A DNA stretch of 63,906 bases, the filler included, from Globobulimina sp. (taxonomy: Eukaryota), in NCBI GenBank assembly GCA_003354225.1. It is 56 parts of 56 records of this genome, joined end to end, with 100 filler letters (N's around TTAATTAATTAA, not from the genome) between each part and the next. Parts side by side here need not be neighbours in the genome. Positions count along the whole stretch, not along the records: positions 24,016 to 25,058 come from PIVH01025005.1; 55 more parts are not named here. The stretch is one strand, 5' to 3'. Every line of letters starts with the position of its first letter. The stretch's first letter is position 1. A program made the position numbers and the translations under genes. Positions 23,916 through 61,622 of the stretch are shown piece after piece. The notes beneath the pieces were generated by a model. That model had not been told where the DNA came from. It ran no database searches and worked only from the letters and a program-made list of their open reading frames with translations.

Positions 23916-24016
23916 NNNNNNNNNNNNNNNNNNNNNNNNNNNNNNNNNNNNNNNNNNNNTTAATTAATTAANNNNNNNNNNNNNNNNNNNNNNNNNNNNN
24001 NNNNNNNNNNNNNNNG

Positions 24017-24891
24017 AAAAATGAATGTCTCCGTCAGCTGGCTAAATTGTGTTTGAATAGTTTCTGGGGGAAATTTGGTTAACGCAACAACATGTCCAAA
24101 ATGGAGTATTATAATGACCCAGCAACATATTTTGAATTGGTGTGTGATCCATCTAATGAAATCTCAGCGATTCGAGTGATCAGTGATGACATGGTGGCCG
24201 TTACCTACAAAAAGTGTGACAAGTTTGTGGAATCCCTCCCTAATACAAGTGCTGTCCTTGCTGCTTTTGTAAGCGCACAAGCACGATTGAAGCTCTACTC
24301 ATACATCGAACAACTCCAAGATCGTGTTCTCTACTTTGACACAGGTGATAAGAAGTTTGAACTTGCTTTTTTTATACTTGAAAACTAGAGTTTTCTTCTT
24401 CAGATTCTGTTGTCTATGTTTCCCGGCCTTGTGATAACTTTGAACTGCCAACTGGTGATTTCCTCGGGGATTTGACTGATGAGCTTAGTGATTATGGTCC
24501 TGGATCATACATCTACGAATTTATCTCTGGTGGTCCCAAACAATATGGTAATAATTGTTTGGTTGCTATTGTTTGCATTATTATTAATGGGATTCTTACA
24601 GGAATGAAAATTTGGTCAACCAAAGAGCAGAAGTACAAATACATTGTGAAGATCAGGGGATTTACAATTAATTCCACAACAGCAAACATCCTCAATTACA
24701 AGAACTTGCGTCGTTTGGTTAAAACACTTATCAGATCTGGTGTCCGAGATGAACTTCGAGTTGTTATTCACAGAATAGAAAGAAATGCCGACCGAGAAGT
24801 TTTTTCCACTACTACAAGAAAAACATATAGAACCATTTATGATAAGAGGCGTCTTTTGAGAGATGGCAGTACTCTGCCTTATGGTTATTGA
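24017..24891 (+). mobile_element. Protein-primed DNA polymerase B (Polinton/Maverick-type), C-terminal part; introns 24345-24403 and 24548-24601; in-frame TAA at 24080
   Basis: AKLCLNSFWGKFG, AAFVSAQARLKLY, VLYFDT|DSVVY, G.FLGDLTDEL, EF.SGGPKQYG, KIRGF and YDKRR...TLPYGY. Confidence 0.93.
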
Positions 24892-25158
24892 TTTGTTGCT
24901 ATTGTGCCAGTATTGTTATTGTTTTTCCATTGTTCACTCTGTTTTTGAAAGTAAAGAAAAAAGCCAGAAGGCAATCCAATATCTTATAAATCAACATAAA
25001 CAGCCCACATTTGGGCTAACCCAAACAGCCCTTGTCAGGGCTATAAATAGTACCAGTTNNNNNNNNNNNNNNNNNNNNNNNNNNNNNNNNNNNNNNNNNN
25101 NNTTAATTAATTAANNNNNNNNNNNNNNNNNNNNNNNNNNNNNNNNNNNNNNNNNNNN

Positions 25159-33159: not shown

Positions 33160-34202
33160 TGATTTTAAAACCCATCGAGAGTGTATTTCACTGAAAAAAA
33201 GTGATAGGAACACAAATACCATTCGAGTGATGTCATATAATATCTTAGCACCTGATCCATGTGGAATTGATAAAGATCAATACGCAATGAGTGAAAAACA
33301 TAATTATTGTCCACGGAAATATAGATTGTGGACCTATCGATTGCCGCGTATTATGGCACAAGTCGCAGCATACAAACCAGATTTTGTTTGTTTACAGGAA
33401 ACGACTTCCCATTCATTTAGAAATTATTTATTAAAAGAATTCCATAGCTTAGGCTTTGAAGGATGGCATGAAAAGAGATCATTGTCAATTGTTAAAGCAA
33501 CAGAAGCTGTGTTTTGGAATAAAAATAAATTTGAATGTTTACGTAAAAAAGTTATACGATTTAATCAAGTTTGTGATGCATTTGATAATGCAAAATATCT
33601 CGGCATTAAAGATGAAAACAATGAGTTTTATAATATGTTAAAAAACAGAGGTGATATGATTATGGTTTTATATTTGCGAAATGTTTTGAATGGAAAAGAA
33701 TTTATATTATGTTCATCGCATTTATTTTATGACCCAAAATGGAGTGATATTAAACTGATACAATGCCTGTTATTAAATAAATCTTTGTATGCATTAATTG
33801 TATCGGAATGGAAATTAAATGTGAATGACATTGGTATTATATTTGGTGTTGATGCAAATTCATATTCTATTAAAACGAAAGCAGATATATTTGATAAAAA
33901 TATAAAAGGAAATAAAGGAATGAGATCCGGTGTTTATCAATTAATGACGCAAGGGATTGTAAGTAAAAAACACAATGATCATCCTTCAAAAAGAGTATTT
34001 TTAAGAAATGACGAAAATGAAAATAAATTAAAACAACAAATTAGATTTGTTCAACATATTAATGATTATAACTATAATGAGTATGGTAGAATGTTATGGA
34101 AATCTGCATATAATATTAATGGGAAAGAACCAATTTATTCAACAAAAACGGATGCATTTCGTGCAACAATTGATTATATTTTTTACAGTGGTAATGTTGA
34201 GA
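33160..34202 (+). CDS. CCR4/nocturnin/Angel-family EEP deadenylase, fragment
   Basis: VMSYNILA, W.YR, PDFVCLQE, SHLFYDP...D.KL.Q, D.NS, SAY..EP..T..F..TIDYIFYS. Confidence 0.92.
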
Positions 34203-49456: not shown

Positions 49457-50202
49457 TTAAATTGATAATTTAAGAAAAATCCCCAAATGGTCGGATGGAT
49501 ATATTTTAATGGGAGTGCCCTGATGTGAGGAATCTTTATAATTCCTCCCAATTAGCCGTATTTTGTTAATATTCACAAAACAATTGCTTTTGATCCAAAT
49601 ATAATCTTTTGTAATTTTATTATTTTTATTCTCATCCCTAGCTCCAACCGCATCCTCCTCCGCTTCATATCTATCATATTTCCACGTATCCGTAGGGAAC
49701 GTCCACTGTTCCTTTCCTTGCTTGTTGGCCACCGCCGATTTATAGCCATTCTGCAGCATAATCCGATAAATATTCGAGTTGGGCGTCGCATTAAAATCGC
49801 CACAAATAATGGTCGCGTCTGCTTTGCATATCTGATTCTGCGCGTTTTCCATCCACTCAATAATTTGCGTAACTTGCTGCGCTGCGCTGTCACCCGCAAC
49901 TTCCTCCGCATTCGCACTCTCATTCTGCTCATGCGATGGCGATAAATGCGTGCATACAATCCAGATCTTCTTCCTTTGCTGTTTCTTAATCCTATTATTC
50001 TTCTCATCCTTTTTCATCGTCACCGACAACCTCTGTCCATACGACGACGTACGCACTGATTGCTGCTCCTTGCTATCTTTCAAAATGTACAAAGCGCGCA
50101 AAGCAATTCGTCGATTCCCGGGTTGCAACGGGATGTACGACCGAAATAACTGATGATTGTTCTTAAACACAATGGCATTGCCAATCTGCGCAATGATGCC
50201 AT
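49457..50202 (-). CDS. Endonuclease/exonuclease/phosphatase (EEP) family protein, C-terminal fragment
   Basis: IGNAI, THL, IICGDFN, TFP, DYIW and PSDH motifs. Confidence 0.88.
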
Positions 50203-60588: not shown

Positions 60589-61622
60589 ATGAATTATAAA
60601 TCTGACCGATTTAGGCCTAATATTAGCAATCCAACATTGAACATTTCAACAATGGACTATGAATCCGATAAAAAACATGCCCTCAAAGAGGCATTAAAAT
60701 TAGATTCATTATCCTCAAAATCATTACTTGCTGAATCCGAAAACAACGCAGTTCCCGATACTTATAACCAATTATTAGATGATAGTGCGTCGAGTATGGA
60801 CACAATTCATAATCAACATTCCGACATTGCCGAAATGACCGAAGAAAATGTTGTTTCTTTGTCGCATCATTTCTCAAACATGTTTAGAATATTTATTGTT
60901 TTATTAATCGCAGCCACTGTCGCATTATTTATTTGGTCAAATTGCAGTGACGGGGCAATGGTCACATTGCAGGTTCATTCATTATCGCCATTCGATTCAA
61001 ATGATTTGCATTCTTTTTTGAATCAACACAACGTATCAAATGTATCATTATCAAATGCATTGTCATCTGAAAATGTTTCTGATGTTTCCAGCATTTTGCA
61101 TATAAACACTGAAATATGTTAAGTCTACATTTACAACGTCATCACTTTTGTATTTTGTGTTTTTTTTTTATGATTTACAGTTAGTTTTTCATTGTTTTCC
61201 TCTGTGAAAACCTTTTGGAGCGCCGGTGGTTACGGATTAGCGCTTTTAATCGCAATTTTTAGCGGGATCTGGCCGTATATTAAATTAATTTTATTATTGT
61301 TCTGTTGGATACTTCCAATGAAACAGAAAAAGCGTGAACAGATTTTGGTATTTTTAGATCAAGTTGGAAAGTTTTCATTTATTGACTTATTTGTGACGTT
61401 GTGTATGGTGCTAGCATTTTATGTGAATATTACTGAACAATTCAAAGGCTTTGGTCTGAACTTAAAGGTTGTGGTCGAGCCGGATGTTGGAATAAATACG
61501 TTTGTGATCGGTACTGTTATTTCCATGCTATTTTCTCGTGTTTTTCTATATTTCCATGCAAAATATGCAAACAACAAATCAATGGACGAACAAAGTGATT
61601 CCTGGCATATTGGATTTAGTAA
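60589..61622 (+). CDS. PqiA-like (paraquat-inducible A) multi-pass membrane protein; intron 61118-61180
   Basis: Spliced IFSFSLFSSV..FW..G.Y.LA.LIA.FSGIWPY.KL and LD..GKFS.ID.FV. Confidence 0.78.

Follow-up and report, generated by a model that had tools for sequence, protein, structure and literature searches.

We consider it likely that one contig of the window, by which we mean the whole 63,906-nt stretch of DNA analyzed here, carries the 3' portion of a polymerase gene from a Maverick/Polinton element, interrupted by two spliceosomal-type introns. Of these, the first splits the catalytic DTD motif and appears to have been inherited within a clade of related elements, and the copy itself bears a premature stop codon. 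This reading draws on the exact fit of two GT-AG segments to the edges of conserved coding sequence, on an intron at the same nucleotide in a related element from a metagenome, and on the constraint acting on the spliced frame.

The polymerase gene and its contig

The window (1-63906) is a pseudomolecule in which linkers of 100 nt (N runs around TTAATTAATTAA) join 56 contigs, each 1042-1044 bp long and placed in order of length. Because these are separate contigs, those next to the polymerase-bearing contig at 24016-25058 are not physically linked to it, and their adjacency is biologically meaningless. Most of the other contigs had a GC content of ~0.30-0.35, compared with 0.38 for the polymerase contig, and ordinary eukaryotic genes were recognized on them (Sacsin, XRN_N, XPG_I, peptidase M16, TLDc, CCDC53, CAP-Gly, and ALG3). 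In homology searches aimed at the host taxon, the peptidase M16 fragment had one hit, at 59% identity, the TLDc protein had 8, the best at 70%, and the XRN fragment matched only broad clusters, so that the host can be described as an AT-rich eukaryote. No Maverick genes were detected on the other 55 contigs, either by Pfam at an E value of 1e-5 on 144 window ORFs or by tblastn with the proteins of L003, the related metagenome contig described below. Bacterial-type domains were present on the contig at 11441-12484 (GC 0.40), whose minus strand encodes two response-regulator receiver domains, and at 61174-61620, which matches PqiA; these could be contamination, transferred genes, or protist or fungal two-component genes. 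Long open frames on two contigs (33161-34201 and 49460-50200) matched Exo_endo_phos and may be endonuclease domains of non-LTR retrotransposons.

Table 1. Features of the polymerase-bearing contig, in window positions
Feature	Position	Strand	Description
Polymerase-bearing contig	24016..25058	.	1043 bp, GC 0.38, linker on each side
Exon 1	24017..24344	+	KNECLRQLAKLCLNSFWGKFG, stop, RNN...RVLYFDT, and first base of the split Asp codon; open at 5' end
Polymerase motif B (KLCLNSFWGKFG)	24044..24079	+	Equivalent to phi29 KLMLNSLYGKF; the relatives' profile aligns to phi29 residues 371-399
In-frame TAA stop	24080..24082	+	Directly 3' of motif B; sole stop in 253 spliced codons
Motif C, first half (YFDT and G of second Asp codon)	24332..24344	+	Aligned to phi29 Y-C-D-T-D-S, 454-459, via the relatives' profile
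Intron 1 (putative)	24345..24403	+	59 nt, GTGATA...TTCTTCAG, phase 1, GC 0.29; splits DT/DS
Exon 2	24404..24547	+	(D)SVVYVSRP...EFISGGPKQY and first base of Gly codon
Intron 2 (putative)	24548..24601	+	54 nt, GTAATA...CTTACAG, phase 1, GC 0.28; in frame, stop-free, private to the contig copy
Exon 3	24602..24891	+	(G)MKIWSTKEQ...STLPYGY; TGA stop at 24889-24891; conserved C-terminus of the family
3' flank to contig end	24892..25058	+	No further gene; sub-threshold Rfam matches only

The features of the gene are collected in Table 1. Its 5' end is cut off by the start of the contig at position 24016, a truncation that had not been seen in an earlier note on this DNA. Exon 1 starts with KNECLRQLAKLCLNSFWGKFG, a stop, and then RNNMSK, and it ends with a lone G after RVLYFDT. 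The spliced codons span motif B, motif C, a KxY motif in exon 2 (24538-24546), and the C-terminus. Rfam matches in the 3' flank (25022-25058 and 24937-25003), to the histone 3' stem-loop at 17.1 bits (gathering threshold, 34) and snoZ7 at 23.1 bits (gathering threshold, 43), are probably due to chance. The sequence TATAAATA lies near the contig end. The same Rfam scan of the contig placed no family in either of the two introns.

The earlier note had called the gene a Polinton-type protein-primed DNA polymerase, and this assignment agrees with a Pfam match just under the cut-off, with a profile match to phi29 DNA polymerase, and with the gene neighbors in L003. When the stop was read as X, exon 1 matched positions 367-462 of the 468 in the Pfam profile DNA_pol_B_2 (PF03175) with an E value of 2.4e-5 and 23.9 bits, the cut-off being 25.8. 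In single exons searched without such read-through, Pfam returned nothing relevant. The relatives fared better in this check, since P0003, P0015, P0022, and exon 1 of L003 all passed the cut-off. Exons 2 and 3 lie beyond the end of the DNA_pol_B_2 profile and had no Pfam match. A search with exon 1 returned 25 proteins at an E value of 0.001 or better, including predicted mollusc, sawfly, and nematode proteins, and those with a Pfam label carry PF03175. In IMG/VR, no close relative was found, and the family profile recovered only one distant locus.

A profile of eleven relatives matched a single PDB structure, phi29 DNA polymerase (1xhx and 7 further entries; E value, 0.0014), and the match covered both motif B (KLMLNSLYGKF) and motif C (YCDTDSI). 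From the match at both motifs, the split motif can be recognized as motif C of a protein-primed PolB, with its catalytic DTD. The likeness to phi29 DNA polymerase consists of motifs B and C; the phage enzyme is distant and intronless, and the exonuclease domain and the regions that define protein priming lie upstream of motif B, where the contig starts. On the contig, the pattern Kx3NSxYG of motif B occurs as KLCLNSFWGKFG, with the stop directly after it. The pattern YxDTDS of motif C, with both catalytic Asp residues, appears only once 24345-24403 is removed, which joins YFDT to DSVVY.

The in-frame TAA had been overlooked in the earlier note. In a 24-row alignment, its column holds an amino acid in all 12 of the relatives that cover it. 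That agreement is what a TAA read as a sense codon in the source organism would give, and the polymerase contig could come from a different organism than the other contigs. We find a reassigned codon scarcely credible, however: on our reading of the ORF list, 14 of the 56 window contigs have frames of 325-348 codons that are open under the standard code, such long open frames would be unexpected in DNA of ~30% GC if TAA were a common sense codon, and the rest of the gene has no other in-frame TAA. Most likely, the contig copy is a recently disabled member of a multi-copy family; alternatively, the stop arose from a low-coverage assembly error.

The sequence of the polymerase contig was found in one DNA run, and no RNA run was among those listed for it. 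In Logan contigs of this probable source run, its depth was ~3 to 4.6, and the only exact contigs came from there, so that the TAA stop and intron 2 are known from that run at that depth. The same run contained at least 12 pieces (12 of 16 records) less than 90% alike to the polymerase contig, and X2 and X3, two more runs made from that sample, had no pieces matching it. The pieces are probably a family of diverged copies among which the contig copy is dead, and the TAA-bearing copy may never have been expressed as protein.

Two GT-AG segments in the coding sequence and the counterpart of the first in L003

GT-AG segments had been described at 24345-24403 (59 nt) and 24548-24601 (54 nt), and their removal was said to restore YFDT-DSVVY and GGPKQYG-MKI. 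The coordinates proved exact, and the restoration holds along the whole gene fragment: with both segments taken out, 252 of 253 codons could be aligned without a gap to the polymerase of L003 in its spliced form, with an identity of 74.2% (73% between the two exon 1 sequences). Both segments have GT-AG ends, and the removal of both restores frame and homology. This observation is confirmed as far beyond chance, and from it we infer that both segments are spliced.

Intron 1 interrupts the codon for the second Asp of DTDS after its first base, in the context ACA G/gt...ag/AT TCT, and shifts the frame by 2. Exon 1 encodes the first Asp, and the second is encoded by G/AT across exons 1 and 2. Without splicing, the frame reads YFDTGDKKFELAFFILEN and then reaches a stop 14 codons into intron 1, ahead of the second catalytic Asp. 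Intron 2 follows closely on the KxY motif. It keeps the frame and contains no stop, which is why it appears in the ORF list as translated sequence, NNCLVAIVCIIINGILT, and the unspliced translation is GGPKQYG[NNCLVAIVCIIINGILT]GMKIW. A BLASTP comparison with the intronless relative P0003 (E value, 5e-61) contained one gap, of exactly 18 residues, at intron 2. Covering rows of the 24-row alignment had no residues at either insert, except for P0002 and P0007, which have an insert at DT/DS. The two introns are poorer in GC (Table 1) than the exons, at 0.40. Their donor sites, GTGATA and GTAATA, agree only loosely with GTRAGT, the usual consensus.

We considered whether the introns belong to a set of repeats or introners and rejected this, since neither has a second copy in the window or in 81 loci, where the sole matches were chance ones of 9-16 nt.

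Intron 2 could be read in another way, with only intron 1 being real and 24548-24601 being a lineage-specific coding insertion of 18 residues, or a retained and translated segment, after the KxY motif. It is 54 nt long, in frame, and stop-free, the ORF at 24382-24891 reads through it, and it is found in no relative. Even so, GT and AG fall exactly at the edges of the 18-residue gap, the GC content is 0.28 versus 0.40 in the exons, and the 3' end, CTTACAG, is pyrimidine-rich. Its translation would put the hydrophobic string NNCLVAIVCIIINGILT beside a conserved motif, at a place where the other rows are empty. A GT-AG intron of the relative L041 lies only 8 nt downstream, which shows that members of the family can have introns close to this site. 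Taken together, these features make a coding insertion unlikely, and we treat the segment as a second putative intron.

A further comparison comes from the nearest relative, L003, a 7118-bp contig that was the closest of 80 loci from a metagenome scan. It has a GT-AG intron of 52 nt (L003:1139-1190) whose nucleotide site and phase are identical to those of intron 1, in the context ACA G/gtatgt...ttccag/AT TCT GTT, and its spliced polymerase has 0 stops. The sequences of the two introns are unrelated (36 matches across 59 and 52 nt). L003 lacks intron 2, and its GGPKQYGMKIW is uninterrupted; across the relatives, the site of intron 1 is conserved and that of intron 2 is found in none. In the probable source run, one of the pieces less than 90% alike to the contig matches it up to 24348 and then continues into unrelated AT-rich sequence. 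On a soft reading, this junction may mark a paralogous copy that has an intron of its own at the intron 1 site.

L003 also bears on whether both segments are products of decay or assembly, that is, random insertions in a dead copy. Such an origin would suit a copy that is already broken by a stop, has low coverage, and occurs in no run other than the probable source run. Against this, an independent metagenome contig has a GT-AG insert at the identical nucleotide and an intact spliced frame, both segments have canonical ends, and no residual indel is left after their removal. A Logan contig of 613 nt, although from the same run, also spans both segments with 0 differences. We regard an artefact as extremely improbable, and introns remain the reading that we follow here.

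The gene content of L003 is that expected of a Maverick/Polinton. An ORF downstream of the polymerase has a weak match to Pox_A32 (E value, 0.0076), as for an ATPase. The other strand carries compact ATG-started ORFs, a capsid ORF with a weak double-jelly-roll (DJR-like) match (E value, 0.004), and an integrase with rve (E value, 4e-11) and a chromodomain. One L003 ORF starts with MTISEFYLTLPSN, a start that we take to resemble those of penton proteins, and no protease gene was identified in L003. The remaining L003 genes look uninterrupted at the junctions inspected. Neither L003 nor the polymerase contig includes element ends. With its packaging ATPase, DJR capsid gene, and rve integrase, L003 indicates that the lineage is a genuine Maverick/Polinton rather than a gene domesticated by a host. 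These linked genes are present in L003, and none is on the 1043-bp contig, which holds the 3' end of the polymerase only.

A viral polymerase being domesticated in a eukaryotic host had been put forward as one of two explanations for the introns. Introns are typical of resident host genes, a host gene domesticated from a Maverick would have gained them in the same manner, and no other element gene lies on the contig or on the other 55 contigs of the window. A contig of 1 kb cannot be expected to show linkage, whether it exists or not. The closest relative has the same intron inside a full element, several pieces less than 90% alike occur in the same run, as in a repeat family, and the contig copy has a premature stop; we judge domestication to be very improbable and did not retain it. 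The other explanation, an intron-bearing Polinton lineage, is the one that the data favor, with the DT/DS intron at the same nucleotide site in L003 and implied in P0002 and P0007.

Proposed expression and comparison with known elements

Between the window copy and L003, pN was 0.163 and pS was 0.761 (saturated), indicating that the spliced frame has been under purifying selection since the two split. By parsimony, the lineages under this selection already held intron 1, which makes it indirect but real evidence that intron 1 is removed.

We propose that a small clade of elements owes intron 1 to its common ancestor and that intron 2 may be a later gain by the contig copy or its near kin, an order of gains suggested by the distribution of the two sites. 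The element would be transcribed in the nucleus, after which the host spliceosome would rebuild YFDTDS and GGPKQYGMKIW. An active polymerase would thus be expected only after nuclear transcription and host splicing. Unspliced RNA would be translated as far as the stop in intron 1, 14 codons in, and would give a product without the second catalytic Asp. Because Mavericks are copied as DNA, introns would pass to daughter copies, which would result in a conserved site with free intron sequence.

An intron in the catalytic motif of a replicative polymerase implies that the lineage would have to be expressed in the nucleus via the host spliceosome. Nuclear, splicing-dependent expression would set it apart from relatives that replicate in giant-virus factories. 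The common DT/DS intron site also offers a simple marker for tracing the clade. A more ambitious proposal is that this Maverick clade has kept an intron in the catalytic DTD through ~25% protein divergence under purifying selection, with the elements active and their replication gated by host nuclear splicing. We offer it tentatively and think it doubtful as a whole. If it were true, intron retention would yield a truncated, dead polymerase, so that the intron could be an on/off control, and the intron could also mimic a host gene toward defences that target intronless invaders.

The polymerase belongs to the same family as those of vertebrate and nematode Mavericks/Polintons and shares their C-terminal signature (...VYDKR...PYGY). 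Barreat and Katzourakis 2021 (PMC8097293) report that the ORFs of intact vertebrate Mavericks are free of introns, "in agreement with" Kapitonov and Jurka 2006, and in nematode Mavericks the core genes are described as intronless, with introns only in cargo (Widen et al., bioRxiv 10.1101/2022.07.12.499685). Compared with these elements, as reported there, the window differs in that the polymerase itself is intron-bearing. According to the earlier note, Polinton/adintovirus pPolB genes are usually described as intronless or intron-poor, which fits what the vertebrate and nematode papers, and the surveys cited below, say in the parts that touch on introns.

The article text searched contained no description of introns in Polinton polymerase genes, with Repbase annotations, Kapitonov and Jurka 2006, and supplements lying outside that search. 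An intron-bearing Maverick polymerase is modestly new relative to the papers that call core genes intronless. Some invertebrate or fungal Polinton entries, in Kapitonov and Jurka or in Repbase, may carry annotated introns.

Introns have been described in other mobile elements. Spliceosomal-type introns (introners) occur inside dinoflagellate eupolintoviral and polinton-like elements (Mob DNA 2025, PMC12166617). Those introners are repeated and transposon-derived, whereas the window introns are only 54-59 nt long and have no other copy in the window or in the 81 loci, with one site conserved across diverged elements. In Ginger1 DNA transposons, the enzyme gene has 1-4 introns, mostly GT-AG, and some positions and phases are conserved (Mob DNA 2010, PMC2836005). 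Ginger1 elements are cut-and-paste and have a transposase only, without polymerase or capsid genes, unlike a Maverick. Adenoviruses are nuclear double-stranded DNA viruses whose PolB is protein-primed and whose genes are expressed via host splicing. They are exogenous and lack an integrase, and their splicing joins leaders and alternative exons.

Other relatives and the distribution of introns

In a quick ML tree (23 rows, 249 columns), the window sequence and L003 formed a pair with an SH-aLRT value of 97. They fell in a five-row clade (SH-aLRT, 94) together with P0002, P0007, and P0003, in which four of the five rows have an insert at DT/DS. P0003, among the closest relatives, is intronless and may derive from DNA or cDNA. 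P0002 (258 aa) and P0007 (158 aa) have in-frame inserts of 16 and 23 residues between YFDT and DS. These start with G-K and end with L-D, which fits G/GTAAA...TTAG/AT, both being represented by proteins only, as gene-caller products. The same two proteins have another insert in common, after FVSG. P0024 and P0005 also paired in the tree (SH-aLRT, 96) and have a common insert after GNFLG.

Introns were also seen at the DNA level in L041, which has four GT-AG introns of 64-79 nt (298-365, 496-559, 1037-1115, and 1205-1269). One of these follows GNFLG, and one is 8 nt downstream of the intron 2 site. L041 (60-1600) is a more GC-rich pPolB relative from a different metagenome, and hand translation gave an in-frame TAG near 596-598; its sequence is apparently that of another intron-bearing, decaying copy.

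Among the 80 loci, DTDS was uninterrupted in 75, was replaced by DTDL or DTDY in 3, and was split only in L003; L041 escaped the regular expression. The one split-motif locus in 80 is not a frequency, since RVLYFDTD, one of the two patterns used in the scan, favors an uninterrupted DTD. The polymerase of a more distant relative has an intron of ~148 nt (L009:966-1113; GTATGT...TTCATTCAG) at a site that is not shared with the window.

Two surveys justify prokaryote-style ORF calling by the view that such viral genes are without introns (PMC9356565 and PMC10120064). Surveys use prokaryote-style gene callers because papers state or assume that core genes are intronless. P0002, P0007, P0024, and P0005 look like products of such calling, being short pieces or having read-through inserts. 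Intron-blind calling is thus likely to leave intron-bearing lineages under-counted and mis-annotated, and the present finding is a warning for surveys of this kind.

Two smaller observations concern motif B in other relatives. P0005 has a 17-residue read-through insert inside this motif (LN/RYDINPCGFFKLASCPS/SFWGK), which suggests yet another intron site of the family, in a different motif of the catalytic domain. P0009, P0011, P0013, P0014, and P0016 are gene-caller products of 225-233 aa that all begin at a Met just after motif B, and their upstream frames may be interrupted at a common place.
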